DNA of 64,000 bases from Sandaracinaceae bacterium (GTDB lineage Bacteria > Myxococcota_A > Polyangia > Polyangiales > Sandaracinaceae), in contig JBGAQA010000030.1 of NCBI GenBank assembly GCA_044220955.1, forward strand, positions 1 to 64,000. The letters are read 5' to 3'. Made by a program: the position numbers and the translations under genes. The notes under the pieces are model-generated. The model searched no databases and was not told the DNA's origin. It was given only the letters and a program-made list of their open reading frames with translations. The first letter of the stretch is position 1. Every line of letters starts with the position of its first letter. This document shows, piece by piece, positions 25,422 to 54,759 of the stretch.

Positions 25422-25570
25422 TCGCTTGCCCTGGCCTCGAAGGAAGGTGCCGGAGTAGATCGCGGCGGGCCGAGCCATAGCACGACACCCGGAGACCGCC
25501 GCGTTTTCTTCTTGTCCGCGCAAGGAGCGTACACGTTGCGTGCCACTTCGACTCCTCCTTCTTTCGAGGC

Positions 25571-27241
25571 CTAGCGTGAAGGATCTTGCTCAGCGGGCAG
25601 CCCGGATGCGAAGCAGGTTACACGGTAGGTGGTGAAGCGCTCGAGCGGCTCCTCGCTCGGTCCATACGGCACGCCCTGCCAGACGGCGTAGTAGCCGGAG
25701 CGAGAGGTGATCGTGCGGAGGAACGTGGCCGGTCCGGCCGGGACGGTGCGCTCCTCGATCGCGGTCAGGCACGCCTGATCGCGGGCGTCGATCGGCTGGG
25801 CGTCGACCAGTCCGGGCCGGACCAGGAGGTCTCCGGGGGCCAGGACCGAGACGCCGGGATCGTAGGCGCGCAACCCGGAACGCTCCGCGTACCACTGCCA
25901 GCCCCAGTGGCCGACGAACCAGGTCTGGCCCGACGTGGCACTTCGTTCACGGTAGCGTGCCCCTGCTTCACGGTAGACGTCGGCCTGGGCGCGATCGGCC
26001 CCCGCCACCGCGAGGCCCAGGACCGTCGAGACGACACCGAGGACCCAGGCACGCCGCGGGGACACGTCCGCGCGCCGAAGGACCAGGAGCGTGAGAGAGG
26101 GCAGCACCACGAGGGCGTGCCGGACGGCCACGAAGGGAGACAGGACGATCACGAAGGCCGCACACAGCCCGGACGCGCTCGCGAGCAGCAACTCGGCGCG
26201 ATCTCCAGGGTCGACCGAGCGGCTCGCGCGCACGAGCACGACCACGCCGCCGAGGAAGAACCCGGTACGGAGCAGCGTGACCGCCCAGGGCTCGTCCCTC
26301 ATCTCGATCGGACCCACGGCCGCCACCAGCCGCGTCGCGGCGACGAGCAGGACGAACGCGGCGCCGAGCCGCGCCCACGCGCCGCGCGGCGTGGGGAGCG
26401 CGAAGGGCGCCAGGGCGATGGAGCCCAGCGTGAGGACGAAGATGGCGCCGCGCGCGAGCGTGACCCCGACGCGCCCGAGCAAGCCGAACTCGCCCACGCC
26501 GCCCGGATGGCGCTCGAGGACGTGGACACCGCCGTAGTCGGCGACGTTGAAGGCCGAGTAGGCGGCCAGGAGCGCGAGCGCGATCCCGAGCGGTGCGAGG
26601 CGGCGTGCGTCGCGCGCGCGCCACGCGTCCAGCACGAAGAGCGGGAGCAGCGAGAGAGCCGTGTACTTCACCAGACAGGCCAGACCCAGCGCGAAGCCGG
26701 CGAGCGCCAGCCGGCGCCCCCACCCCTCGGAGGTCACGAGCGCCCAGAGCGCGACGCAGACGAGCGACACGAGCGGCGCGTCGCACATGATGTTCTGCCC
26801 GGGGACGAAGCCCGGGCCGAGGAACACGAGAGCGGTCGCCAGCCTCGCCTTCGCCCGCGCGCTCGAGCTGGCGTCCGCGCCGAAGAGGTGCCGCGCGAGC
26901 GCGTGCAGCGCCGCGATGCCCGGCGCGACCGTGATCGCGAGCGCGAGCTGGGCGGCGACGAGCGACCCGCCCGAGACCGCGAGGGCGCCCGCGAGCCAGT
27001 AGTAGAAGAGGTGCGGCTGGTTGAGCGCGTGGATGGCCTCGGGGTGGGCGCCCCAGAACACCGTACCGCGCATGGGGTGCAGCGGATCGAGCAGGATGTG
27101 ACGCGCGATGGCGAGGTGCGCGGCGTCGTCGACGTGCGCGGCCTTGCCGAGGTTCGCGAGCGTCGCCAGGGCCCAGACCGCGGCCACGAACACCCCGTCC
27201 GCGCGGCGAAATGGACCGTTCGCCGGGACGATCGTCGACAT
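25571..27241 (-). CDS. GT-C fold (ArnT/PMT-like) membrane glycosyltransferase
   Basis: N-terminal HVDD acidic motif, NQPHLFYY, GLACLVKY, and many TM helices. Confidence 0.7.
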   Translation of the reverse strand: MSTIVPANGPFRRADGVFVAAVWALATLANLGKAAHVDDAAHLAIARHILLDPLHPMRGTVFWGAHPEAIHALNQPHLFYYWLAGALAVSGGSLVAAQLALAITVAPGIAALHALARHLFGADASSSARAKARLATALVFLGPGFVPGQNIMCDAPLVSLVCVALWALVTSEGWGRRLALAGFALGLACLVKYTALSLLPLFVLDAWRARDARRLAPLGIALALLAAYSAFNVADYGGVHVLERHPGGVGEFGLLGRVGVTLARGAIFVLTLGSIALAPFALPTPRGAWARLGAAFVLLVAATRLVAAVGPIEMRDEPWAVTLLRTGFFLGGVVVLVRASRSVDPGDRAELLLASASGLCAAFVIVLSPFVAVRHALVVLPSLTLLVLRRADVSPRRAWVLGVVSTVLGLAVAGADRAQADVYREAGARYRERSATSGQTWFVGHWGWQWYAERSGLRAYDPGVSVLAPGDLLVRPGLVDAQPIDARDQACLTAIEERTVPAGPATFLRTITSRSGYYAVWQGVPYGPSEEPLERFTTYRVTCFASGLPAEQDPSR

Positions 27242-30483: not shown

Positions 30484-32868
30484 ATGGGTGAACGCAGTCT
30501 GTTCGGGCGCGCACGAGCGCTCTTGGTCGTGTTGAGCGCTTTCGGTGCCCTGAGCGCAGGCTGCGCGGACGGGAACACCACGACCGGTGGTCATCGCGAC
30601 ACGGGGACCGGCGAGGCCGGCACGATGGACGCCGGGGTGCCGGACACCGGTCCGCGCGACTCGGGCGCGCTCGACTCGGGCGCCGTCGACGCGAACAACC
30701 ACGACGCCGGGGCCGACACGGGCCCGCACACGATCGTGGGCACGTGCGAGGCGTGCACGACGGACGCGGACTGCGACCCGATGTCGTTCTGCGCTCGCCT
30801 CGTGACCGGCGAGCACGCGTGCTTGCCCGGCTGCGACAGCGAGCTGCCCGTCTGCCCGCGCGCCTTCACGTGCATCTTCGACGCGACGGGCACGGGCGTA
30901 CACGCCAACGTCTGCGCGCCGGTCGGCGGACCCTGCTGCGTGGACGAGGACGCGGACACGTACGGCGTCGGCGTCGGGTGCATGGGTCCGGACTGCAACG
31001 ACTCGCTCGTCAGCGTGCACCCGGGCCGCGACGAGATCTGCGACGGCATCGACACCAACTGCAACGCGCACGTCGACGAGGATCCGAACGACTGCATGAC
31101 CGGGCGCTGCTCGGCCGACGGCGACGGGACGTACTCGGCCATCGCCGGCGCGACCTGCCGGCTCGCGGCGTGCACCTCGGGGACCAACACCGACTGCGGC
31201 CTCTACACGTGCCACGACGGCGCCGCGATGGGCACGACCTGCGCGACGCAGTGCTTGAGCGCCGCCGGGACCGACGACGACCTGTACTGCATCGTCAGCG
31301 CGCACTGCGACACGGGCGCTTGCGTGGCCGACGTGCCGAGCGGCGGCGTCTGCGACGAGGACAGCGACTGCTCCTCGACCCACTGCGACAACGGGTTCTG
31401 CTGCGGCTCGGGGACCTGCTGCGCCACGGACGCGAACTGCCCCGGCGGCGGATCGCCGACGCGCATCTGCGACGACCCGACGAACTGCCAGGGTCACCGC
31501 GGCGTCGTCACCTGCCAGAGCAACTCCTGCACGGCGATGAGCGGCATCAACGACGACACGGCCTGCGACGCGTCGGTCACGGCGCGTGACTGCGGCACCT
31601 ACAACCCCATCGTCTGCACCGGCGCGGATCCGCAGACGTCGCGCGCCTGCCCGACGAGCTGCGTCAGCGACGCGGACTGCGTGGCCGCGGCGCACTGCGC
31701 GGTCGGCTTCTGCATCCCCGATCTCCCGCAGGGCGGGCCCTGCGGCCGCAACGCGGACTGCCAGACGGGCCTCTCGTGCGTGGACAGCACGTGCTGCTCG
31801 AGCGCGTGCACGGGCGCGTGCATGGCGTGCAACGTCGCCGGCAGCGAGGGCACCTGCTCCGCCATCGCGGCCGGAAGCGATCCCGCTGGCGAGTGCCCCG
31901 GCTTCGCGTGCGACAACTACTACACGGGCTTCGGCGCCGGGAGCGACGTCTGCCGCTCCCGCGCCCCGGTCAGCGACTCGGCGGCGGCGTGTGACGGCGC
32001 GGGCGCGTGCCGCACGGCGGCGGTGATGTGCCCCGCCCAGCTGCCGGGCACCACGCAGATCGACTGCAACGACACCTGCATGACGCCGCGATCGGGGACG
32101 TGCACCGGCAACACGGCCGGCGTCTGCGACAACCTCGACGGGACGGCCGGGACGCGCAGCTGCGGCTCCGGCGCGTGCACGACGACGGTTCAGGCATGCG
32201 TGATGGGCCTTCCGCAGACCTGCATGGCCCCCATGGGCGGTCCCGAGAGCTGCAACGGCGTCGACGACAACTGCAACGGCACGGTGGACGACGGCGGCGC
32301 CGCGCTCTGCGGCGCGGTCCCCCACGTCGACACCCAGTCCTGCAACGGCTTCAGCGGGTGCGGCATCGCGATGTGCAGCACCGGCTGGGCCAACTACGAT
32401 GGGAGCACGGGCAACGGCTGCGAGTGCGACCTCGCCGGCGCGGGCGCCACCTGTGCAGTTGCGCGCAACCTCGGGTCGGTCACGGCGGGCATGACGATGT
32501 CCCAGACGGTGAACATCGGTCCCGGCGCCAGCTCGGCCTGGTTCCAGGTCGCCTTCCCTGCGGACGCCGCTCCGGCCCCGCGCGGCGGGACGCCGACGAT
32601 CTCGGTCACGCCGTCCGCGAACTTCCACATCTTCGTGTGGAGCAACTGCTCCGCCGGGACGTACGCCTGCAACGCCCCGGGCGACCCGGCGAACTCGGGC
32701 ACGGGCTCGTTCTCGACCTACCAGATGGCCGATACCGTCGCGAACGGACCGACGGGATACACGTCCGCGATGTCGTCGTGGCCCGCGACGGTCTACATCC
32801 AGGTCGTGCGCAACACGCCGGCGACCACCTGCGCGAACGCCACGTTCTCTCTCACCGTCTCGCGCTGA
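30484..32868 (+). CDS. Large Cys-rich lipoprotein with putative metal-binding (MopE-like) motifs
   Basis: Lipobox LSAGC; DCND...HPG..EICDGIDTNCN..VDE and ESCNGVDDNCNGTVDD motifs. Confidence 0.85.
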   Translation: MGERSLFGRARALLVVLSAFGALSAGCADGNTTTGGHRDTGTGEAGTMDAGVPDTGPRDSGALDSGAVDANNHDAGADTGPHTIVGTCEACTTDADCDPMSFCARLVTGEHACLPGCDSELPVCPRAFTCIFDATGTGVHANVCAPVGGPCCVDEDADTYGVGVGCMGPDCNDSLVSVHPGRDEICDGIDTNCNAHVDEDPNDCMTGRCSADGDGTYSAIAGATCRLAACTSGTNTDCGLYTCHDGAAMGTTCATQCLSAAGTDDDLYCIVSAHCDTGACVADVPSGGVCDEDSDCSSTHCDNGFCCGSGTCCATDANCPGGGSPTRICDDPTNCQGHRGVVTCQSNSCTAMSGINDDTACDASVTARDCGTYNPIVCTGADPQTSRACPTSCVSDADCVAAAHCAVGFCIPDLPQGGPCGRNADCQTGLSCVDSTCCSSACTGACMACNVAGSEGTCSAIAAGSDPAGECPGFACDNYYTGFGAGSDVCRSRAPVSDSAAACDGAGACRTAAVMCPAQLPGTTQIDCNDTCMTPRSGTCTGNTAGVCDNLDGTAGTRSCGSGACTTTVQACVMGLPQTCMAPMGGPESCNGVDDNCNGTVDDGGAALCGAVPHVDTQSCNGFSGCGIAMCSTGWANYDGSTGNGCECDLAGAGATCAVARNLGSVTAGMTMSQTVNIGPGASSAWFQVAFPADAAPAPRGGTPTISVTPSANFHIFVWSNCSAGTYACNAPGDPANSGTGSFSTYQMADTVANGPTGYTSAMSSWPATVYIQVVRNTPATTCANATFSLTVSR

Positions 32869-37802: not shown

Positions 37803-37846
37803 CGCCACGTTCTCTCTCACCGTCTCGCGGTGCGCGGCGCCGACCT
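37803..37846 (+). repeat. Direct repeat copy 2 (partner 32838-32882), abutting the ferredoxin stop codon
   Basis: Same 27 bp core and CGCGGCGCCGACCT tail. Confidence 0.9.
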
Positions 37847-38229
37847 CATCGCCTCGAGCGCGCGGCCCAGGCCCGGACCGCGCGCTCGCGCTCGGCGGGC
37901 GAGGCCAGCTCGAGCCAGGCACGGAAGCTCTCCTCCGAGATCTCCACCTCGGCCGTGCCGGCGGCGATCGCGCGCGCCTGGCAGCCGAGGCGGCTCTCCG
38001 GGCGCGGCTCCTCGCACGCGAGCTCGATGACGTCGCGCTCGTCCTCGTGGACGGGGCTCAGGCTCTCCGCTCCGCTCCGCACGTAGACGTGGCACGTGGA
38101 GCAGGCGCAGACGCCGCGGCAGCGGCTGCCCTCGGGCGCGCCGACGCGCTGCGCGGCGTCGAGGACACGCTCGCCGATCGGCAGATCGCACGCGAGGTCG
38201 AGACCGACGAAGACGACGCGCAGGCCCAT
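37846..38229 (-). CDS. 2Fe-2S ferredoxin (adrenodoxin / ISC-Fdx type)
   Basis: CRGVCACSTCHVYV...SRLGCQ; ATG lies 1 bp after the stop of the upstream radical SAM gene. Confidence 0.9.
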   Translation of the reverse strand: MGLRVVFVGLDLACDLPIGERVLDAAQRVGAPEGSRCRGVCACSTCHVYVRSGAESLSPVHEDERDVIELACEEPRPESRLGCQARAIAAGTAEVEISEESFRAWLELASPAERERAVRAWAARSRR

Positions 38230-38230
38230 G

Positions 38231-39412
38231 TCACTCGCGGTCGAGGACGACGAGCCGGATCTTGGCGCTACCACGCTTGGCCGTGGCCTTGCGAACGGGG
38301 GCGCGCTGGGCGCGCGGGGCATGGCGACGAGCAGCCCCCTGCTCCCACACGAGCGGGGCGAACTCGCCCTCGCCGTAGATGTCGAGGTATCCGCGCCAGA
38401 CGCCCTCGCACACGTCGGTCAGCGCACAGCGCGAGCAGGCGTCCATGTGGTGCTTGAGGTCGTAGCGCTTGCGATCCTGCCAGTTGAAGCGAGCGCGACC
38501 GTCCTCGAACGAGGCGACGCCGTACTCGCCCTCGGCGCGGATCGAGCAATCGGTGGAGAGGTCGCGGAAGACGTCGCCGCAGTACTTCGCGAGCAGGTGC
38601 TTGCTGCGCAAGAGCTCCTCCGGGAGCACGCAGAGCGGGAACCCGCCGAAGGTGAACGTCTTCTTGAAGTGGTACTCGTTCAAGAGGATCGCCTTCGTGA
38701 GCAGCGGCACGATCTCGGTGTAGGTGGGCACGAGATCGGCGTTCCCCTCGGCGTAGCCCTCGGGGCGCACGAAGTTCACGCGCAGATCGTCGAGGCCCAT
38801 CGTGTCGAAGAAGAACTTCATCATCGCGAGCAGGTGCGGCCCGTTCTTCGCATTGAGCACGATGTTCACGGAGACGCCGTCCGCGAGGTGTCCCTCCGAC
38901 TTGCGCTTCAAGAGGTTCCGGATCGCTGCGCACTTCTTCTCGTACGCGCCCGGCACCATCACGAGCTCGTCCTCGAGCGCCTTGGTGTGCCCGTGCATGG
39001 AGATCGTCGTGCGCGTCAGGCCGGCCGCGAGGAGCTTGTCGGTGAACTCCATGCGCCGCAGCATCATCGCGTTGGTGGCGAGCGCGATCCGCGTGTAGCC
39101 GAGCTCCTTGGCGTACGCGACCGACTCGACGATCTTCATGTACGTGGTCGGCTCGCCCCCGAGGAAGCCGACGGACAGGTGGCCCTCGGCCCGCCAGCGC
39201 TCGAGCTCGCGCTTCATCACCTCGAAGTCGATGAACGCGAGATCCTCCTTCGTCGGCATCCCGTCGAGACAGAAGACGCACTTGTTGTTGCAGACCTTGC
39301 CGACGTTGATCTCGACGTTCTTGCGGAGGTCCCGGTAAGTGCTGGTCACCTGGTTCGCGCTCGGGGAGAGCGCGGAGCTGGCCGGTGCCGGTGCGTCGCC
39401 GTCCGCGCTCAC
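38231..39412 (-). CDS. Radical SAM protein with C-terminal CxxC-x5-C motif (HxsC-like position)
   Basis: CNNKCVFC, GGEPT, TNA, FPLC and CSRCALTDVCEG. Confidence 0.88.
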   Translation of the reverse strand: MSADGDAPAPASSALSPSANQVTSTYRDLRKNVEINVGKVCNNKCVFCLDGMPTKEDLAFIDFEVMKRELERWRAEGHLSVGFLGGEPTTYMKIVESVAYAKELGYTRIALATNAMMLRRMEFTDKLLAAGLTRTTISMHGHTKALEDELVMVPGAYEKKCAAIRNLLKRKSEGHLADGVSVNIVLNAKNGPHLLAMMKFFFDTMGLDDLRVNFVRPEGYAEGNADLVPTYTEIVPLLTKAILLNEYHFKKTFTFGGFPLCVLPEELLRSKHLLAKYCGDVFRDLSTDCSIRAEGEYGVASFEDGRARFNWQDRKRYDLKHHMDACSRCALTDVCEGVWRGYLDIYGEGEFAPLVWEQGAARRHAPRAQRAPVRKATAKRGSAKIRLVVLDRE

Positions 39413-40419
39413 GACCCGCCCGCCTTCACGTAGGGAGTCAGGGCCGTCGTCGGGAAGATCTCCGCGTAGCGGTCGAACACGCCCATGCAGACGTCACGAC
39501 GCGCGCAGTCTCGGCAGGCATGGGCGTGGACGCGCTTGCGGTCGGGCGCCCAGGAGTAGATCGCCTCGAACACGACCTTGCCCGGCGCGCTGCCCCACTC
39601 GACGGTGACGCGCGGATCCCAGTGCAGATCGTTCGAGAGGAACGCGTGATCGCCCAAGAGGCACATCGGGGTACCGAAGAAGCGTACCACCGCGCGGGGA
39701 GCGCGCGACGGTACCTGGGGCAGCACCCGGGCCAGCGTATCGAGCGGCACCGCCAGCCGCTCGTAGTCGTCCAGGCCCTTGCCCTCGGGCGTGACGTTCG
39801 AGATCACGATCAGCTCGGCCCCGAGGGCGTCCGCGAGCGCGGCGGTGTCGGGCAGCGCCTCCACGTTCTGGCGCGTGACGACCGTGTTCACGTACGCGCG
39901 GAAGTCCGGGCGCAGACGCCTCGCGTTCGCGATCGCGGCGCAGACCTGCTCGAAGCTCCCCTCGCGCCCCGCCATGGCGTCGTGCAGCGCCGCGTCGGGC
40001 CCGTGGAGCGAGAAGAGCCCCTCGTCGAGGAAGGGCAGCGCGCGCGCCGCGAACTCCGCGCGCGCGATCATCGTCCCGATGGTCCCGATCGACGTGCGCA
40101 TCCCCAGCTTCTTGGCGAGCGCGAGCACCTCGACGAACTGCGGATGGATCGTCGGCTCGCCCCCGGTGAAGTGGACGTTCTTCACGCCACGCGACGCGTG
40201 CATGCGCAGGACGGTGGCCACGCGTGCCCACGTGACGGGGAAGGGCCTGAAGCGCTGCATGCGGTGCTCTTCGGAGCAGAACGAGCAGCGCTCGGGGCAG
40301 GTGTACGTGAGGTGCAGCTCGAGCCGCTCCATCACCCGGCCGTTCCGCGCGATCCAGGGTGTCGCGTTCTCGGCCTTCGCCGGGGCGTGCGCGCCGAGGA
40401 CGGGGAGAGACACCCTCAT
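39409..40419 (-). CDS. Radical SAM protein with C-terminal CxxC-x5-C motif, paralogous to 38231-39412
   Basis: CPERCSFC, TGGEPTIH, SLHG...HD, PMC and CRDCARRDVCMG. Confidence 0.88.
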   Translation of the reverse strand: MRVSLPVLGAHAPAKAENATPWIARNGRVMERLELHLTYTCPERCSFCSEEHRMQRFRPFPVTWARVATVLRMHASRGVKNVHFTGGEPTIHPQFVEVLALAKKLGMRTSIGTIGTMIARAEFAARALPFLDEGLFSLHGPDAALHDAMAGREGSFEQVCAAIANARRLRPDFRAYVNTVVTRQNVEALPDTAALADALGAELIVISNVTPEGKGLDDYERLAVPLDTLARVLPQVPSRAPRAVVRFFGTPMCLLGDHAFLSNDLHWDPRVTVEWGSAPGKVVFEAIYSWAPDRKRVHAHACRDCARRDVCMGVFDRYAEIFPTTALTPYVKAGGS

Positions 40420-40441: not shown

Positions 40442-41425
40442 TCACGCGGCCCTCGACCGGCGAGCGTCGATCCAGCGCGGCAAGAGGCGCCGACAGAAGC
40501 GCGTGAGGGCCTCGTCGGCCGCCAGGGTCGAGCTCCACACGCGCGGCGGGAGCGTGCGCTCGAGCAGCGCGTTCACCTCGCGCTGCTTGCCCGCGAGCGC
40601 GGCGGGAGTCGGCGGCGCGTCGAGGTCGCCGCAGCGCGTCTGATCGAGCAGTTCCTCGAGCGCGCCCGAGAGGCCCACGTTCGAGGGATGGATCGTCCGG
40701 TCCGCGTCGACGACCAGGCCCGTGTTGAAGAAGGGCGTCGGCGCCCGGGTCGTGAGGTTGCGGACGTAGAGCCACTCGCCCGCCGCCCATCGCGCCTCGA
40801 TGTTCTCCGCCATCGCGCCGAGCGCGCGCTCGAGCGCCGCGAGCTGCTCGTCGGTCCAGGGGATGTAGTAGCCGGGGAGGAAGTTGAAGCGGCGGAAGCC
40901 CAGCGAGAGGAGGTGCTCGAAGTTGTCCGCGGCGGCCGCCGCCGTCGCGGGCGGGATGGTCTGCGTGACCACCACGCGCGGCAAGCGCGCGAGCCGAGGC
41001 GCGAGCGCGGCGAGGTGATCGTAGGTGTCCAGGACCTTGGGCAGCGAGCGGCGGTGCCGGCGGTGGTCCTCGGGCCGCCCGTCCATGGAGACCTGCAGGA
41101 TGGTCTTGGGTCGCGAGGCGAGCAGCTCGAGCCACGCGTCGTCGAGCATCAGGCCGTTCGTCGAGAGCTGGATGGAGCGGATACCCGGCAAGGTCTCGGC
41201 GTGATCGATCGCCGCGCGCACGACTTCCGGCACGAGGAGCGGCTCGCCGCCGAAGAGCTTCACCGCGCCGCCACCGAACGCGCCGACGAAGAGGTCGAGG
41301 GCGCGGCGCGCGTCGGCGGCGCTGAGCGAGGGCCAGCCGTCCTTCGCGGTCGGGCAGTAGCTACAGCGCAGGTTGCAGGCGCGCGTGACCGTCAGGACCA
41401 GCAGCGATGCTGCGTCCGCCGGCAC
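40442..41425 (-). CDS. Radical SAM protein (anSME/AslB-like core, no clear SPASM cysteines)
   Basis: TRACNLRCSYC, FGGEPLL, STNG and VSMDG..E.H motifs. Confidence 0.88.
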   Translation of the reverse strand: MPADAASLLVLTVTRACNLRCSYCPTAKDGWPSLSAADARRALDLFVGAFGGGAVKLFGGEPLLVPEVVRAAIDHAETLPGIRSIQLSTNGLMLDDAWLELLASRPKTILQVSMDGRPEDHRRHRRSLPKVLDTYDHLAALAPRLARLPRVVVTQTIPPATAAAAADNFEHLLSLGFRRFNFLPGYYIPWTDEQLAALERALGAMAENIEARWAAGEWLYVRNLTTRAPTPFFNTGLVVDADRTIHPSNVGLSGALEELLDQTRCGDLDAPPTPAALAGKQREVNALLERTLPPRVWSSTLAADEALTRFCRRLLPRWIDARRSRAA

Positions 41426-41452: not shown

Positions 41453-41839
41453 TCACCACTGACCGTGCGAGCCGTGCGAGCCGTGCGAGCCGTGCGAGCC
41501 GTGCGAGCCGTGCGAGCCGTGCGAGCCGTGCGAGCCGTGCGAGCCGTGCGAGCCGTGCGAGCCGTGCGAGCCGTGCGAGGCGTGCGAGCAGTGCTGCGCG
41601 AGGATGATGCTGCGGCTCGCGGGATCGGCGAGCAGGTCGTCGGCTGCGATGAGGAGATCCGCCGTCCGATCGGGACGCGTCGCCTGCTCGGTCTCGCGCG
41701 GCTGCATGAAGAGCGCCGGGGCGCGCCTGCGCCGCGGAAGCATCGGCGCGGCTGCCTGACGGGGCTGACGCCCGAGCTGCACGAGCTCGGTGCTCGCGTC
41801 CGGCGTGGCGTTGTCGTCCCTCTTCTCGCCTTCGGCCAT
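41453..41839 (-). CDS. hxsA: His-Xaa-Ser repeat precursor peptide (HxsA-like)
   Basis: 82-aa leader ending IILAQ, then HCS-HAS-(HGS)12-HGQW; strong RBS AGGAGAGG; flanked by radical SAM genes. Confidence 0.85.
41463..41579 (+). repeat. Perfect 9-bp tandem repeat (CCGTGCGAG)x13 encoding the HGS tract on the minus strand
   Basis: 117 bp equals 13 identical units, counted directly. Confidence 0.95.
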
Positions 41840-41937: not shown

Positions 41938-43521
41938 TCAAACGGCGCAGCTTTGTCCCTGCTCCCGAGGGCGGGTCAGGATCCAGCGGCGGAACATCGC
42001 TTCGATCTCGCCGCTCGGGTCGTTCGCCAGCCGCTCGAGGAGCAGGGAGGCGATGGTGTAGTGCTCCTTGCACTTGGGGGAGTTCGGCCGCTGGCCGAAA
42101 ATATCCCCGCTCTTCATGTAGTTGTGCATCGGACAGACGCCGCAGAACGGCTTGTTCCAGCACGTGTCGCAGCCCGGCAGCGAGTCCTGCAGCGACGCGA
42201 CGGCCATCGCCCGCACCGTCGGGTGCTGGATCATCTCCGGATACGCTGTGCTCCCGACCTCGCCGATCTGGAACAGGTCGTTGCCCATCGCCGAGGTCAT
42301 CCGCGCCTCGTCGCAGGGAAAGAGCTTGCCGTCGTAGTTGTAGGCCACCTGGCCCGTTCCGGCGCCGCACGGCGAGCGGATGTCGACGAAGTTCGGATCG
42401 TCACCCGTGAGCATCTTGGCGAGGAACGTCGCCGACGTGCCCTCGACGATGGTGACGCCCTTCCGATTGAGCTCGATCAGGTAGTCGAGCGCCTGCGCGT
42501 AGAAGTCGAGGTACTCGGTCGTCGTGTAGCCGATGGCCTTCCACGTCGCGAGGGCGAACCCGTACGGGTTCAGCGGGCGGAGGTGGATCGTGTGCATCCC
42601 GAGCTCGACGTAGAGGTCGACGACCTCCTTGAAGTGCTCGAGCGTCTTGCGCGTCGTCGTCATCAGCGCGTCGACGTGCCAGAGCTGCGGGTCGCGCCCG
42701 AGCTCGACGTAGCGCCGGTTGAAGTAGGCGATCCACTCGCGCACGGTCTCGTAGGCGCCGGCCTTCGCGAGATCCTTCCCGGGGGGCCCCTTCTTTCCGG
42801 GAGGCAGAGTGTCGGGTGACTGCTTCCACGCGCGGTTCCAGTCGTGCACGTGCTGCGGTCCGTCGAGCGAGGTGCATACGAGCACGTCGTTCGCGATGAG
42901 CCACTCGGCCTTCTCCTCGGTCATGAACGTCATGTTCGTGACGAGCGAGTGGACGAGATCCTTCTTCTCGTACTTGTTCTTCTCGCGGCTGTACTCGACC
43001 ACGAACTTGATCGCGTCGAAGTTGGCCGTGGGCTCGCCACCCTGGAACTCGAAGTTGATCGTCGGCGAGGTCGACTGCATCGCGTGGTCGACCACCTGCT
43101 TGGCCGTCGCGAGCGACATGTCCGTGTCGACGCGATCCATGTCCGTGCGCGAAGCGTGGCAGTACTTGCAGCTCTGGTTGCAGCGCAGCGTCGTGATGAC
43201 GATGTGCAGGTGGGGCCCGTGGCTGAGAAACGCCTTCTTCCGGCGTACGCGCGCCGCGAGGTCGTCGATGTCCAGGCCCTCGCGGAGAAACCCCTTGGCC
43301 CGCAGCGCGGCGTGCTCGGGGTGCGCCTCGGTGATCTGGCCCGCGAGCAGCGCCTCGAAGTCGGACTTGGAGAGGAAGTGCCACTGTCCGGCGTCGTTGG
43401 TGACGATCATCCGCCCGGCGACCTCGCCCCAGCGGAAGAACGAGAGCTTGTCGGTCACGAGGGGGAGGCGGCGGACGCTGAGGGTCTTCTTGGTCACCGC
43501 GCCGACGACGGAATCGCTCAT
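41938..43521 (-). CDS. hxsB: His-Xaa-Ser system radical SAM/SPASM maturase HxsB
   Basis: LHIVITTLRCNQSCKYCHAS, EFQGGEP, TSLDGP..VHD.NR, RSPCGAG.GQVAYNYDG..FPCDEARM and CDTC..KPFCG.CP. Confidence 0.88.
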   Translation of the reverse strand: MSDSVVGAVTKKTLSVRRLPLVTDKLSFFRWGEVAGRMIVTNDAGQWHFLSKSDFEALLAGQITEAHPEHAALRAKGFLREGLDIDDLAARVRRKKAFLSHGPHLHIVITTLRCNQSCKYCHASRTDMDRVDTDMSLATAKQVVDHAMQSTSPTINFEFQGGEPTANFDAIKFVVEYSREKNKYEKKDLVHSLVTNMTFMTEEKAEWLIANDVLVCTSLDGPQHVHDWNRAWKQSPDTLPPGKKGPPGKDLAKAGAYETVREWIAYFNRRYVELGRDPQLWHVDALMTTTRKTLEHFKEVVDLYVELGMHTIHLRPLNPYGFALATWKAIGYTTTEYLDFYAQALDYLIELNRKGVTIVEGTSATFLAKMLTGDDPNFVDIRSPCGAGTGQVAYNYDGKLFPCDEARMTSAMGNDLFQIGEVGSTAYPEMIQHPTVRAMAVASLQDSLPGCDTCWNKPFCGVCPMHNYMKSGDIFGQRPNSPKCKEHYTIASLLLERLANDPSGEIEAMFRRWILTRPREQGQSCAV

Positions 43522-43778
43522 CGGCTGACCTCCCGCGAGCGCGCGACCGTCTCGGAGAGCGCGTAGTTCGCCAGCTCGTCGGCCAGCACGGCGCTGACGC
43601 TCGGGTGCGCGTGCTCGATGATCACCAGCATGTCCTCCGCGTTGTGCAGCACCTTGAGGGTCGCGAGGTCGGCGAACGCCTTCACAGCGTCCTCGACGGC
43701 CTCGGGGACGTAGAGCGACCGGTGGAAGCGAACGTGCTCGGGATCGGCCGCGGCCGACGGCTCCGCGGAGGACCCCAT
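43518..43778 (-). CDS. Short HxsD-like protein
   Basis: FHRSLY..EAV..A...F and LADELANYAL parallel the motifs of the upstream HxsD; overlaps both neighbours. Confidence 0.65.
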   Translation of the reverse strand: MGSSAEPSAAADPEHVRFHRSLYVPEAVEDAVKAFADLATLKVLHNAEDMLVIIEHAHPSVSAVLADELANYALSETVARSREVSR

Positions 43779-44287
43779 CAGCGCTTCTCCTCGGCGGGAG
43801 CGCCCGGCGGCGAAGCAGGGCTGGCCTTTTTCTCCCAGGGGACGGCGACCTCGAGCGGGGCCTCGGCCATCTCCTCGGCGTCGAGCTCCGCCAGGAGCTG
43901 GTCGATCGTGCTCTTCTGGTCGGACGCGAAGAACGCGCGGGCCATGTAGTACTCGCGGATGCGGGCCGTCGACTCGCCGACGCGCAGGCGCAGCACCTGG
44001 TTGAGCAGCTCGTTGGCCAGCTCGCCCGCGAGCGCCTCGAGCTCCGCCGCGGTGGCCGGTCCCTTCGTGCGCAGCCGCACCGCGACGCGCTGATCGGCCG
44101 GTCGATCGAGGAGCACGTAGCAGCGGTCGATGAAGAGGTAGGTGGCGCCGTAGATCGCGTCGCGCGGATAGAGCTGCTCGTCGATCACGAAGCGGATCTG
44201 GCGCTCGGAGAGCTCGTACTCGAAGTCCGCGCGATCGCCCGGCCCCGAGACGTCGGAGCGCTGCGGGGGAGCCGCCACTTCGCTCAT
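43778..44287 (-). CDS. hxsD: His-Xaa-Ser system protein HxsD
   Basis: IDEQLYPRDAIYGATYLFIDRCYV and ELANELLNQVLRLRV...TARIRE resemble the HxsD signature; operon context agrees. Confidence 0.75.
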   Translation of the reverse strand: MSEVAAPPQRSDVSGPGDRADFEYELSERQIRFVIDEQLYPRDAIYGATYLFIDRCYVLLDRPADQRVAVRLRTKGPATAAELEALAGELANELLNQVLRLRVGESTARIREYYMARAFFASDQKSTIDQLLAELDAEEMAEAPLEVAVPWEKKASPASPPGAPAEEKR

Positions 44288-44814
44288 GCCGTCTCCGCGA
44301 CCTGGTATCCGCCGTGCACCGCGTTGCGCTGCTCGTGCGTGAAGAGCGCCCGCAGCGCGACGCGCTGGTCGGGCGAGACGCCCCCTCGAAGGGCCGCCGA
44401 CTCGACGCGGCGAACGCGCGCCGCGAGGCTCATCACGGCGACGCCACCGGCCTCCTGCGTGATGCGATCACCATCGCCACCGTTCATCCAGCGCAGGTCG
44501 AGCAAGCGCGTCGTCGCCAGCCCCGCCGAGAGCGGCGAGCGCCGGAAGACCTGCACGACCGCTCGCGCGCCGTCCTGGCGGGCGAGCGTCACCGTCGCGG
44601 ACCCGCGCTGCACGTCCGAGACCGCCAGCACGCGGAAACCCCCGGGGAGCGGCCGGCCGATCAGCGGGGCGAAGAGGAAGTCCAGGCTCGGCAGGTGGCC
44701 GCGGCCTTCCGCGCGCTGGCCACCGGTCGGTCCTGCGCTGGCGAGCAGGGGCAGCGGAAGCGCTGCGCTCACGGCACCGGCACCCACGATCCCGAAGAAC
44801 GTCCGTCGTCGCAT
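44284..44814 (-). CDS. Twin-arginine (Tat) signal protein of unknown function, first gene of the Hxs operon
   Basis: MRRRTFFGIVGAGAVSAAL...; GGAG RBS; 4-nt ATGA overlap with hxsD. Confidence 0.7.
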   Translation of the reverse strand: MRRRTFFGIVGAGAVSAALPLPLLASAGPTGGQRAEGRGHLPSLDFLFAPLIGRPLPGGFRVLAVSDVQRGSATVTLARQDGARAVVQVFRRSPLSAGLATTRLLDLRWMNGGDGDRITQEAGGVAVMSLAARVRRVESAALRGGVSPDQRVALRALFTHEQRNAVHGGYQVAETA

Positions 44815-48713: not shown

Positions 48714-49943
48714 GTGAAACGCACCCCCTCGTCGGTCCTCTCCCTCGCCGCGCTCGCGCTCGCGTCGTGCGGCACGCCTGCCGACACGCTCTCCGACGGC
48801 CGTCCCGTGCTCGAGGACTACGCGGCGATCCTGCACGCCGAGTACGACGACGCGCGCATCGACGCGCTCGATCTGCGCACGAGCGCGCAGCCGCTCTTCG
48901 CCTCGGGGACGAGCGCGAGCGCCGCGGCGCTCACCGGCGCGCGCGACGCGTGGCGGGACGCTCGCGTCACGTACATGCAGACCGAGGCTGCGCGCTTCTA
49001 CGGCGGGCCGATCGCGGACCACTCCGCCTACACGAACGAGTGGCCGATCGACGAGGCGCAGATCGACTACGTCGCGGGAACCGGCGGCGCGCCGAGCTTC
49101 GGAGGCATCGTGAACATGCCGTCCGCGGTCCCGACGATCGACGCGGCGGCGCTCCGTGACGCGAACCTCCCGACGGGATCCGAGACGGTCACCGTCGGCT
49201 TCCACGCCATCGAGTTCCTGCTCTGGGGCCAGGATCTGCGCGCGGACGGCGCCGGCGATCGTCTGCACACCGACTTCGTCGATGGAATGCAGATGAACGC
49301 CGACCGACGCCGGGCGTACCTCGACGTCACGACCCAGATGCTCGTGGGCGAGCTGACGGCGGTGCGCGACGCGTGGGCGCCAGGCGCGAGCAACTACCGC
49401 GCGGAGTTCGTCGCGCTCGAGCCGCGCGAGGGCGTGCACCGCATCCTCATCGGCCTCATCCGCTTGCTCGGCGGCGAGATCGGTGACGACCGAATCCTGC
49501 CGGCGTACACCGACAAACTGCAGGAGGACGAGCACTCCTGCTTCAGCGACAACACGAGCGCCGACCTGCTCAACGACGTGCAGGGCGCGGTGAACGTGTA
49601 CGAGGGGCAGTACACGCGGACCGACGGAACGGTGGTCGGTGGCCACGGGCTGTCCGACCTCGTGCGCGCGCGCGACGCGGCGCTCGACGCGCGTGTCCGC
49701 GCCGCGCTCCAGGCCGTGCTCACGCACCTGGCGGCGTGGCCGACGACGGCCTCCTGCCCGAGCGCGACCCTTCAGGGCATGTGTCCCTTCGATCAGCTCT
49801 TCCTCGGCGTCGACAGCGATCCGGGGCGCATCGCGATGTGGCAGGTGCACACGGAGCTCGAGGATCTCGCGGCCCTGCTGCAGACCGACGTCGCCGCCAC
49901 GCTGGGCGTCACGATCACGCCGGCGGATCTCTCGAACGACTGA
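48714..49943 (+). CDS. Imelysin family iron-regulated lipoprotein (IrpA/IcmP-like)
   Basis: Lipobox LASC; NEWPIDEAQIDYV, GFHAIEFLLWGQD and EDEHSCFSDNT motifs. Confidence 0.9.
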   Translation: MKRTPSSVLSLAALALASCGTPADTLSDGRPVLEDYAAILHAEYDDARIDALDLRTSAQPLFASGTSASAAALTGARDAWRDARVTYMQTEAARFYGGPIADHSAYTNEWPIDEAQIDYVAGTGGAPSFGGIVNMPSAVPTIDAAALRDANLPTGSETVTVGFHAIEFLLWGQDLRADGAGDRLHTDFVDGMQMNADRRRAYLDVTTQMLVGELTAVRDAWAPGASNYRAEFVALEPREGVHRILIGLIRLLGGEIGDDRILPAYTDKLQEDEHSCFSDNTSADLLNDVQGAVNVYEGQYTRTDGTVVGGHGLSDLVRARDAALDARVRAALQAVLTHLAAWPTTASCPSATLQGMCPFDQLFLGVDSDPGRIAMWQVHTELEDLAALLQTDVAATLGVTITPADLSND

Positions 49944-51313
49944 TGCGTCGGCGTCTCGCGGCGCTCGGAGCCCCGTTGCTCGCGTCGAGCCTCGTCGCGG
50001 CGTGCGCGGCGACGGCGCCCTCCCTCGACCCGGGTGAGTCGATGCCCGGCGGGGGCGCGACGACGCAAGACGCGTCGCGCGCGGCGCTCGAGCACGAGGT
50101 GCTCGGGCTCGACGAGGCGCAGCACGCGGCGTTCGTCGTCGGCGACAGCTTCACCACGCACGACTGGGTGAGCGCGCCGGCGTCGGCTTCCTCCCGCGAC
50201 GGCCTCGGTCCGCTCTACAACGCCACGCGCTGCAGCGCCTGTCACGCGCGGAGCGGCCGCGGCCGACCCGCCGACGAGGGCGGCGAGATGCTCTCGTCGC
50301 TGGTGCGGCTCAGCGTGGCCGGCGCGGACGCCGAGCCGACCTACGGCGCGCAGCTCCAGACGCGCGCGATCCTCGGCGTCCCGCCGGAGGCCGCGACCCT
50401 CACGCGCTGGATCGAGACGCGAGGCGCGTTCGCCGACGGCACACCGCTCTCGATGCGCGCGCCGCGCGTGGACATCGTCTCTCTGGCCTATGGGCCGATG
50501 GCCGAGGCCACGCTCGTGTCGGTGCGGACGGCGCCCGCGCTGGTCGGGCTCGGCTTGCTCGAGGCGATCCCCGACGCGGCGCTCCTCGCGAACGAGGATC
50601 CGGACGACGCGGATCACGACGGGATCTCGGGGCGCGCGAGCCGCGTGTGGGACGCCGAGCGCGGGGCGTGGCGCCTCGGGCGCTTCGGGTGGAAGGCCTC
50701 GATGCCCGACGTGCGCACGCAGACGGCGGCCGCGCTCGCCGGGGACATGGGGATCACGTCCGTGGCCGTGGGAGCGCAGCCCTGCACGGAAGCGCAGCGC
50801 GAGTGCGCGGCGGCCCCGGACGGAGGCGAGCACGAGGCGAGCGACCTGGTGCTCGACGCCATCACGCTCTACCAGCGCGCCCGCGAGGTGCCCGCGCGGC
50901 GCGACGCGTCGGACGCGCGCGTTCTGCGCGGTCGCGAGCTCTTCCACGCCGCTCAGTGTGCGAGCTGCCACGTGCCCTCGTTCGTCACCGGCCCGAGCGA
51001 CGTCGCTGCGCTCGCGGGCCAGCAGGTCTGGCCCTACACGGACCTCTTGCTCCACGACATGGGAGAAGGTCTCGCCGACGGGCGCCCGGACCACGCCGCG
51101 ACCGGCCGCGAGTGGCGGACGCCCCCGCTGTGGGCGGTGGGCCTGGCCGAGGTCGTGTCGGGCGAGGCCTTCTACCTGCACGACGGGCGTGCCCGCGACG
51201 TGACGGAGGCGATCCTGTGGCACGACGGCGAGGCCGAGGCCGCACGTGAGGCTTTCGTCACGATGAGCGCGAGCGATCGCGACGCGCTCGTGCGATTCGT
51301 TCGTTCCCTCTAG
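49943..51313 (+). CDS. Di-heme oxidoreductase (DHOR/DUF1111) family lipoprotein
   Basis: GLGPLYNA..CSACH, GRFGWKA, CASCH, PYTDLLLHDMG, WRTPPLW and LHDGRAR motifs. Confidence 0.92.
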   Translation: MRRRLAALGAPLLASSLVAACAATAPSLDPGESMPGGGATTQDASRAALEHEVLGLDEAQHAAFVVGDSFTTHDWVSAPASASSRDGLGPLYNATRCSACHARSGRGRPADEGGEMLSSLVRLSVAGADAEPTYGAQLQTRAILGVPPEAATLTRWIETRGAFADGTPLSMRAPRVDIVSLAYGPMAEATLVSVRTAPALVGLGLLEAIPDAALLANEDPDDADHDGISGRASRVWDAERGAWRLGRFGWKASMPDVRTQTAAALAGDMGITSVAVGAQPCTEAQRECAAAPDGGEHEASDLVLDAITLYQRAREVPARRDASDARVLRGRELFHAAQCASCHVPSFVTGPSDVAALAGQQVWPYTDLLLHDMGEGLADGRPDHAATGREWRTPPLWAVGLAEVVSGEAFYLHDGRARDVTEAILWHDGEAEAAREAFVTMSASDRDALVRFVRSL

Positions 51314-51337
51314 CCTTCTTCGTCTCGAGGTCCTCCG

Positions 51338-52449
51338 ATGCGCCGTACCGTCCTCTTCCTCGCCCTCTCGCTCTCGACCGCGGCGTCGCTCGCTTGCCCC
51401 GGCTGTGACGGGCCGAGCTACCCGCCCTACGATCGAGGCGCGCTGCTGCGGGAGACCGCCGACATGGTCATCCTGCCCGGCATCGCCGCGTCCCGGGCGA
51501 GCGCGGCCGACCTGCACACCAGCGTCGGGGCGCTCTGTGCGGCGCCCGACGCAGGCCGGCTCACGGCCGCGCGCGAGGCCTGGACGACGGCCTTCCTCGC
51601 GTGGCGATCGACGACCGCGTACCACTTCGGCCCGGCGCGCGACATGAACCTCGGGCCCGAGCTCGCCACCTGGCCGACCAACGTGACCGCCATCGAGGCC
51701 AACGTCGCGGCGACGGACGCGATCGACGCGCACTACGTCGATGCGCTGGGGGCGGGGAGCAAGGGGCTCTCCGCGCTCGAGTACCTCCTCTTCGCGTACC
51801 CCGGGTACACCGCGCGCGACGACGCGATGACGCTGGCCGCCCTGGGCGAGACGCGGCGCTGCGCATATGCGGTGGCGCTCGCCGACCACGTCGAGCGTGT
51901 CACCGGGCAGCTCGAGACGGCGTGGAGCGCGGGGGGCGGCAACTACGTCGGGACGTTCGTGAACGCCGGCAACGCTGGCAACACGAGCTTCACCTCCCAG
52001 CAGGCGGCGGTCGACGCGCTCGTCAGCCAGATCCGCGAGGCCGTCGAGCGCACCAAGGTCGACCGGATCGGAAAGCCGCTCGGCCGGACCGTGGCGACGG
52101 GCGGCGTGGAGTCGCCCTACGCCCACGTCTCGGTCGCCTCGATGCAGGCCTGCGTCGACGGCGCGCACGACGCGTGGACGATCGCCCCCCACAGCCCGGA
52201 CGCGTTCCTGCGCACCCGCAACGCGGCCTTGGCCGACGAGGTTCTCGGCCAGTTCGCGGCGGCCTCGACGGCGCTGGCGGCCCTCGAGACGCCCCCCCTC
52301 ACGCCCGAGTGGGAGTCGTACGTGAGCGGAGCCGATCACGCGGCGGGCAACGCGGCGTACGACGCGCTCGGGCTGCTCGAGCGGACGCTCGCCGGCGACG
52401 TGGCAGCGACGCTCGGCGTCAGCATCGTGTCGGCCGCCGACGGGGACTG

Positions 52450-52450
<1 letters not shown>
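51338..52450 (+). CDS. Second imelysin family lipoprotein
   Basis: AAREAW, FGP...WP, KGLSALEYLLF, ESPYA and C-terminal LGV....DGD. Confidence 0.85.

Positions 52451-54759
<2,309 letters not shown>

Follow-up and report, generated by a model that had tools for sequence, protein, structure and literature searches.

An HxsA4-family His-Xaa-Ser repeat precursor in a Sandaracinaceae-like myxobacterium and its uncurated clade with the radical SAM enzymes R1, R2 and R3

Introduction

A short open reading frame (ORF) with a histidine at every third residue of its C-terminal part raises the questions of whether it is a gene at all, which enzymes would act on its product, and what that product would do. 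Proteins with His-Xaa-Ser (HxS) repeats were predicted long ago to be substrates of radical SAM enzymes (rSAMs). In the literature searched, data on them come only from the Escherichia coli branch, with one unexplained +C/-4H change (PMC13128918). The ORF considered here lies in a window of 64,000 nucleotides, the whole stretch of DNA that was analysed, and belongs to the HxsA4 family, whose members are small, domain-free substrates with a simple repeat and therefore a good handle on the open chemistry of HxS repeats.

A conserved precursor gene

The precursor and its parts are as follows.

41453..41839, minus strand: HxsA4 precursor gene, GQW subtype; 128 aa; 119.7 bits against NF038313 (cut-off 55)
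41594..41839, minus strand: leader, 82 aa; conserved stretches at residues ~34-50 and ~60-75; without a hydrophobic signal helix
41456..41593, minus strand: core HCS-HAS-(HGS)12-HGQW; the 12 HGS units form one perfect 9-bp tandem array

A sequence-only reading had described an 82-aa leader, an LAQ junction, an HCS-HAS-(HGS)12 core and an HGQW tail, with 15 His at three-residue spacing, a lone Cys and a C-terminal Trp, and the ORF translation reproduces both the architecture and the count exactly. The histidines are at residues 83, 86 and so on to 125, LAQ at 80-82, the single Cys at 84 and the single Trp at 128, the final residue; the core is made only of H, C, S, A, G, Q and W, without Arg or Lys. 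A purine-rich GGAGAGG site stands immediately 5' of the ATG, and the GC3 of the leader is 0.88, as in the adjoining genes. The Met start and a leader of 82-83 aa were kept in all three same-genus relatives compared, and in a six-frame search of the 7.5-Mb genome the precursor was the sole run of at least three H-x-S/T units. Leader DNA was present in contigs from three DNA runs. An RNA run also gave a contig 100% identical over the leader (three contigs, depth 2.6-3.9, DNA carry-over possible), and this low-depth contig is a weak hint of transcription. A promoter and terminator scan of the locus gave no signal exceeding shuffles. The precursor is a real, conserved gene.

All 12 HGS units share an identical 9-mer, a uniformity found in just 3 of 99 related arrays, and this is the observation that would suit an artefact of assembly or a 9-bp microsatellite without coding function. 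We give that reading practically no probability, as homologous precursors encode HGS with 2-17 different 9-mers, the score against NF038313 exceeds the cut-off, and the leader recurs in the three DNA runs. Across the 99 related arrays, codon differences from the modal unit were 1189 synonymous and 10 non-synonymous, and 1335 of 1345 interior units were HGS; this pattern indicates that the repeat is under selection as protein. The frame and HxS register had been expected to persist in homologues, and they do so in the relatives. The microsatellite or artefact reading is refuted for the gene, and doubt is confined to the exact copy number: since every one of the 12 units has the same nucleotide sequence, the number may be unstable or a product of assembly consensus, and 12 is best treated as a soft figure.

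The number of His ranges from 7 to 59 in GQW precursors and from 9 to 64 in GSW precursors (those with an HGSW tail), a range so wide that a linear array fits better than a fixed ring topology. Some relatives carry very long arrays of 50-64 His (loci L072, L073, L134, L455, L456 and L460), and tandem precursor pairs were seen at L082/L084, L088, L099 and L115.

Family membership and the C-terminal tail

The match to NF038313 (HxsA4) covers model positions 2-93 of 93, and of the 301 genomes sampled from the order, 96 have a protein above the cut-off of the model. This tally counts this genome and one unpublished genome (G123), which enters no further count here apart from the 301 genomes searched for C243a (below). 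HxsA4 is a catalogued family that is chemically unstudied, and a single precursor gene is ordinary for its order; this membership is absent from the sequence-only reading. The closest relatives of the adjoining HxsB (88-89%) come from Sandaracinus sp., Sandaracinaceae and Deltaproteobacteria.

For comparison, we used 80 regions around HxsA4 matches in these genomes (a subset of the matches) and 33 HxsB-anchored loci. With 6 duplicate rows removed, 106 precursors had a core that starts H-[C/A]-[S/Q] and includes HGSHGS. Conservation of the terminal Trp had been left as a query, and it is kept in 100 of these relatives (71 HGSW, 29 HGQW), the remaining six being interrupted by Ns or a frameshift or cut off where the contig stops; the set is biased towards the HMM, because the HMM itself contains the Trp. 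The LAQH junction, raised in the same query, is poorly conserved, with LAQ in 16 of 106 and a Gln preceding the first His in 82. Among 72 more distant homologues, 4 of which were misfiled leader types, Trp is the last residue in 38 and Tyr in 12; a further 12 have an aromatic residue within the last three positions and 10 have none.

Several HGSW precursors stand without an Hxs enzyme within ~7 kb (L057, L058, L060, L064, L068 and L071, and further L083, L089, L092, L093 and L108). The Hxs enzymes may lie elsewhere in those genomes.

The operon and its enzymes

The genes around the precursor run in the order U-hxsD-hxsD-like-hxsB-hxsA4-R1-R2-R3(-ferredoxin).

44284..44814, minus strand: U, first gene of the block, with a twin-arginine N-terminus; no known family
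43778..44287, minus strand: HxsD; TIGR03976 54.8 against 50
43518..43778, minus strand: HxsD-like protein; NF038315 58.8 against 41
41938..43521, minus strand: HxsB radical SAM/SPASM maturase; TIGR03978 490 bits against 370; Pfam Radical_SAM and weak SPASM
40442..41425, minus strand: R1, unnamed radical SAM enzyme; best NCBIfam PapB, 92 against 340
39409..40419, minus strand: R2, HxsC-like radical SAM enzyme; HxsC4 81.3 against 500, HxsC 67.4 against 267.9
38231..39412, minus strand: R3, HxsC4-like radical SAM enzyme; HxsC4 144.5 against 500, HxsC 64.9 against 267.9
37846..38322, minus strand: 2Fe-2S ferredoxin, overlapping the end of R3; PF00111 27.7 against 21

The expectation that the ORF would be the precursor of a radical SAM system is borne out, as HxsB, HxsD and the HxsD-like protein adjoin it. 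The structural model of HxsD is predicted to have a ferredoxin-like/ACT-type fold with a long helix (pLDDT 82), and among the matches listed it appears closer to ferredoxin-like folds than to a recognition element, with a middling best score (Z 7.1, rmsd 3.0, 72 aligned).

R1, R2 and R3 exceeded no NCBIfam cut-off among the best 25 families per protein, and no close solved structures were found for them. R1 has a SPASM-type fold, and its model is nearest to CteB and anSME (TM about 0.7), with only the three CxxxCxxC cysteines conserved (alignment A2); its SPASM-like C-terminal part is without conserved Cys, a pattern that persists in distant homologues. R2 and R3 have the cysteine layout of HxsC, yet they are only 22-24% identical to three plasmid HxsC proteins; the C-terminal CxxCxxxxxC of R2 resembles canonical HxsC.

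U matched no Pfam family and came near no NCBIfam cut-off among the matches listed, with an Atlas lead of only 0.79. Its twin-arginine (RR) motif is seen across the N-termini of the family, and it is present in 21 of 28 GQW loci and 4 of 69 GSW loci; we regard U as a candidate export partner or anchor. The ferredoxin is lineage-restricted and was rejected as a core component, being found in just 4 of 28 GQW loci and in none of 69 GSW loci.

Two subtypes with different enzyme sets

The enzymes separate the precursors by tail. A close R1 orthologue occurs in 29 of 29 GQW precursor loci and in 0 of 71 GSW loci, and R1-R2-R3 is complete in 25 of the 29, two of the others being without R3 in the retrieved stretch and two lying at contig ends. 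True HxsC4 (598-631 bits) was found in 28 of 69 GSW loci and in 0 of 28 GQW loci. Anchoring on R1 gave 33 close loci, namely 29 GQW, 0 GSW, 1 broken and 3 without a precursor, and a search of 401 genomes from the phylum gave R1 matches at E<=1e-35 in 53. Both subtypes coexist in several genomes (G036, G150, G164, G182 and G185). What is new here is an uncurated GQW clade with the rSAMs R1-R2-R3 in place of HxsC4, plus U.

We built a tree with FastTree from 107 HxsB proteins, restricted to those whose tail had been scored, together with three plasmid outgroups. It places a GQW/R1 clade (48 proteins, support 0.997) as sister to a GSW clade without R1 (36 proteins, support 1.0), and its outer branches carry distant R1-like genes. 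Because this is a single split between sister clades, the co-segregation of GQW and R1 is no proof of specificity. Distant R1-like genes also follow HGSW (L474, L476, L477), HSSW (L417) and HTSW (L427) tails, and R1 is missing from the position immediately downstream at several distant GQW loci. The tail Gln as the target of R1 was rejected on the single clade split and on the distant R1-like genes behind non-Gln tails.

The lone Cys and the Trp had been proposed as targets of the extra enzymes, and neither proposal stands. Seven of the 29 GQW precursors have no Cys, even though the core filter favoured Cys-bearing ones; all seven retain R1 and five retain R1-R2-R3. Three Cys-less HGSW precursors were found among 20 further regions. 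Trp, for its part, is just as regular in the 71 HGSW precursors, whose loci have none of R1-R3. Since Cys can be absent where those enzymes are kept and Trp occurs without them, neither residue explains the extra enzymes.

Orphan Hxs-type enzymes elsewhere in the genome

Six orphan rSAM genes and one aKG-HExxH gene, all of Hxs-associated families, lie on four other contigs with no HxS precursor nearby.

C243:29848-33652: two orphan rSAMs
C263:4040-5062: one orphan rSAM
C276:17163-18704 and 25428-26654: one orphan rSAM and the aKG-HExxH gene
C122:4510-9134: two orphan rSAMs, one of them B12-binding

Counting orthologues at >=38% identity over >=150 aa in 107 non-duplicate loci, we found those of the first C243 enzyme (C243a) adjoining HxsA4 in 16, of the second (C243b) in 23, of the HExxH gene in 15 and of the B12-binding enzyme in 2; the remaining three gave 1, 1 and 0. 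C243a was present at E<=1e-90 in 32 of 301 genomes, and by hand comparison 31 of those have HxsA4 over the cut-off. Within one family the co-occurrence is 22/23 vs 3/68. Kin are not independent, and P values calculated across such relatives are overstated. In two same-genus genomes the orphan-type genes form a separate cluster.

The GQW precursor is new in having no signal helix and the orphan Hxs-type enzymes in co-occurring with the precursor. We infer that these enzymes act on this HGS precursor, and the apparent trans network, together with the enzyme set of the clade, is the uncatalogued part. One could extend this to a dispersed network in which the four rSAMs in cis, up to six orphan rSAMs and the aKG-HExxH hydroxylase would turn the peptide into a hypermodified His polymer of variable length, exported together with a Tat-dependent partner, used at the envelope by myxobacteria and made by chemistry other than that of the single +8 Da site of E. 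coli; we consider this distinctly improbable. The same low weight applies to the part of it that takes in R1, with its SPASM fold and lost auxiliary-cluster Cys, and the low-GC and small-genome archaeal cousins described below.

Leader types and the wider range of the family

Within the leader, conservation centres on a motif at residues ~34-50, LP-x4-P-x2-F-[LM]-Q-x2-E, and not on the junction (alignment A1). A profile of GQW leaders matched GSW leaders at E 1e-5 and a low-GC leader type at E 6e-5, the GSW and low-GC profiles matched each other weakly (E 0.009), and reversed-control profiles gave E 0.35-0.47. These comparisons show one leader motif common to three leader types (GQW, GSW and low-GC). 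The leader of this precursor has a maximum 15-residue hydropathy of 0.87, vs a median of 1.87 in the low-GC type, which carries an additional hydrophobic segment.

The low-GC type came from a tail-anchored metagenome scan, in which the first 80 of at least 121 loci were analysed in full and showed the same tail in low-GC lineages behind a different leader. Low-GC loci in which the leader motif is followed by the hydrophobic segment, the HxS core and a distant R1 include L175, L176, L180, L193, L197, L202, L207, L223 and L234. We take the hydrophobic segment to resemble a class III (prepilin-type) signal. No prepilin-type peptidase (Pfam A24) was found in 70 of the 93 candidate ORFs within ~6 kb at 18 low-GC loci. 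Matches to HxsB at E<=1e-80 also came from a small-genome archaeal phylum, in 50 of the 401 genomes searched, and HxS precursors were present in about 10 of 30 short archaeal loci. Blocks of hxsD, hxsB and a precursor were seen in these archaea (L411-L440). A phage-borne system was rejected, being absent from the viral-contig loci that match the HGS pattern (at least 121 listed). At least two viral contigs (L299 and L302) carry an HxsA2-like precursor adjoining HxsB.

These distant homologues bear on a structural reading of the repeat, according to which Gly-x-y would form collagen-like or polyproline-II bundles on the surface for contact or adhesion in predatory or attached cells. The core reaches 29.6 bits against the Pfam Collagen model (cut-off 27.2), the middle Gly is nearly invariant in myxobacterial arrays, and related precursors of other lineages have their hydrophobic segment behind the leader motif. 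However, the Collagen match arises because any Gly-x-y repeat yields it, and homologues from archaea and low-GC lineages vary freely at the middle position (G, A, S, T, V), so Gly is no requirement of the family. We believe that this reading is very unlikely.

Surroundings of the operon in the window

On the opposite strand, 48714-54759 holds an imelysin, a di-haem oxidoreductase, a second imelysin and, by eye, a probable TonB-dependent receptor; the cluster is likely to serve iron uptake and is not recurrent beside HxsA4. At 30484-32868, plus strand, lies a Cys-rich secreted protein of the MopE-motif type. Such proteins recur near HxsA4 loci (neighbour families 13, 18 and 24), yet they are common in these genomes.

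The imelysin/di-haem/imelysin cluster, 4-8 kb off, is one argument for a polymer that would bind or buffer Ni, Cu, Zn or Fe, with modifications that tune the imidazoles. The 15 His at a spacing of three, the absence of basic residues and an array length that is free to vary also fit such a polymer. Against it, the cluster lies outside the recurrent families, the one studied homologue has another role, and no metal transporter or regulator is among the annotated recurrent neighbour families. This leaves metal binding rather unlikely as the function.

What the precursor may become

The closest functional model is E. coli HXS, for which one study reports that HxsA/B/C/D blocks phage DNA entry and that all four genes are needed (Li et al. 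2026, PMC13128918). In the same study, HxsA cleavage is aided by B, C and D, export is non-canonical and the location is periplasmic; HxsC and HxsD form a complex; of the five repeats, the last has the single modified site, with +8 Da (+C/-4H); Ser, His and Ser are each essential; and the basic repeats bind DNA (PMC13128918). According to the same work, the insolubility of HxsA stood in the way of reconstituting the chemistry in vitro (PMC13128918).

Taken as a whole, the best explanation of our locus is a His-Xaa-Ser (HXS) system with an HxsA4-family ribosomal precursor in a Sandaracinaceae-like myxobacterium, for and against which we see the balance as about even. Its parts differ in strength. 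The peptide is very probably modified by HxsB, HxsD, the HxsC-like R2/R3 and R1, with the leader motif as the recognition site that recruits them; by comparison with CteB/PapB-type enzymes, the N-terminal domain of HxsB would be the most likely partner of the motif. By analogy with E. coli, R2/R3 together with HxsD, HxsB and R1 would oxidise or cross-link Ser-His-x-Ser at one or a few sites, probably near the end of the array; the remaining units would serve as a multivalent, linear array of His, with the leader cut off at or near the junction. We find the arguments for this step evenly weighted. The same analogy would give the product a barrier or defence role at the cell envelope, reached by a non-Sec route and possibly via the twin-arginine U, which might replace the missing signal peptide and anchor; this is conceivable, but we lean against it.

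Function is the weakest step. Synteny of the operon in relatives supports the explanation, as do the family scores of the precursor, HxsB, HxsD and HxsD-like, the synonymous excess in the repeats, the wide range of His numbers, the cysteine layout of R2/R3, the E. coli data, the twin-arginine U of most GQW loci and, weakly, the RNA contig. A peptide without Arg or Lys, signal helix or peptidoglycan-binding domain argues against it, since the E. coli model depends on each of these, and so does the failure of R2 and R3 to match either HxsC model, given their low identity to canonical HxsC. PADLOC matched 2 of 64 flanking proteins at GQW loci, both with generic kinase or desulfurase domains, and none of the non-rSAM neighbours in the window. 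At the GQW loci, HxsA4 neighbourhoods are not defence islands; the family, with its presence in about a third of the order (96/301 genomes), sits among housekeeping genes, unlike many defence cassettes. The annotated recurrent neighbour families included neither a peptidase nor a transporter.

A more extensive modification had been suggested on the precedent of cross-links between an aromatic residue and the residue two positions away. That precedent exists, for His too: triceptide enzymes are reported to join residue i to residue i+2, with C2(His)-Cbeta(Ala) and Phe-Cbeta(Ser) among the bonds formed, and TvgB performs repeated cyclopropanation on a repeat precursor (PMC11002830). Together with the four rSAMs in cis and the strong selection on each interior unit, this would allow an enzyme to cross-link or oxidise every His-x-Ser, with serial losses of 2 Da, into a rigid poly-macrocycle. 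However, E. coli HxsA is reported to have one modified site among its five repeats (PMC13128918), the scores of HxsB and R1 fall well short of the cyclophane-enzyme models (YhhB for both, FxsB for R1), and arrays of up to 64 His would demand very high processivity. We consider such a fully cross-linked product unlikely.

Comparison with known systems

Literature naming HxsA4 or HxsC4 was not found, subscription journals and bioRxiv supplements being outside the search, and a chemical study of HxsA4 may exist there. The searchable supplements of the E. coli study, which places HXS systems almost wholly in Pseudomonadota, do not mention Myxococc-, archaea or HxsA4 (PMC13128918). Another source treats HxsB and HxsC as clusters of their own (PMC9062424).

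Triceptide systems (XncB, OscB, MscB, HaaB, YhhB) and TvgAB (PMC11002830, PMC9062424) likewise place an rSAM/SPASM enzyme beside a leader-core precursor, and their aromatic-x-x motifs and repeat cores are similar to this locus. Their enzyme models were missed here, with YhhB at 45.7 (HxsB) and 32.2 (R1) vs 445, and FxsB at 31.7 (R1) vs 370 among the matches listed (best 25 families per protein). Unlike triceptides, no dedicated protease or transporter was seen at this locus.

The E. coli HXS system shares with ours the HxS repeats behind a leader, orthologues of HxsB and HxsD, and the cysteine layout of HxsC. According to the study cited above (PMC13128918), E. coli HxsA has a signal peptide and a peptidoglycan-binding domain, whereas this precursor has neither (Pfam, hydropathy); it has five basic repeats, against 14 units here with no basic residues and a terminal Trp; and its system has two rSAMs, against four in cis here. 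The precursor scored 16.6 bits with the HxsA model TIGR03979 (cut-off 121.65), and R2 and R3 both missed the canonical HxsC model TIGR03977.

The type-4 HXS set also has HxsC4 (NF038332), for which R3 gave the best score here, and no protein of the whole genome (88%-complete) passed its cut-off. In its place stand the three unnamed enzymes of the GQW clade, among them one whose SPASM-like domain is cysteine-free. The clade also gives natural controls in the form of Cys-less precursors, arrays of 7 to 59 His and genomes with both subtypes. The other four members of the type-4 set (HxsA4, HxsB, HxsD and HxsD-like) all pass their cut-offs at this locus, and the gene order D, D-like, B, A and the HxS-(HGS)n-HGxW core are found here as well.
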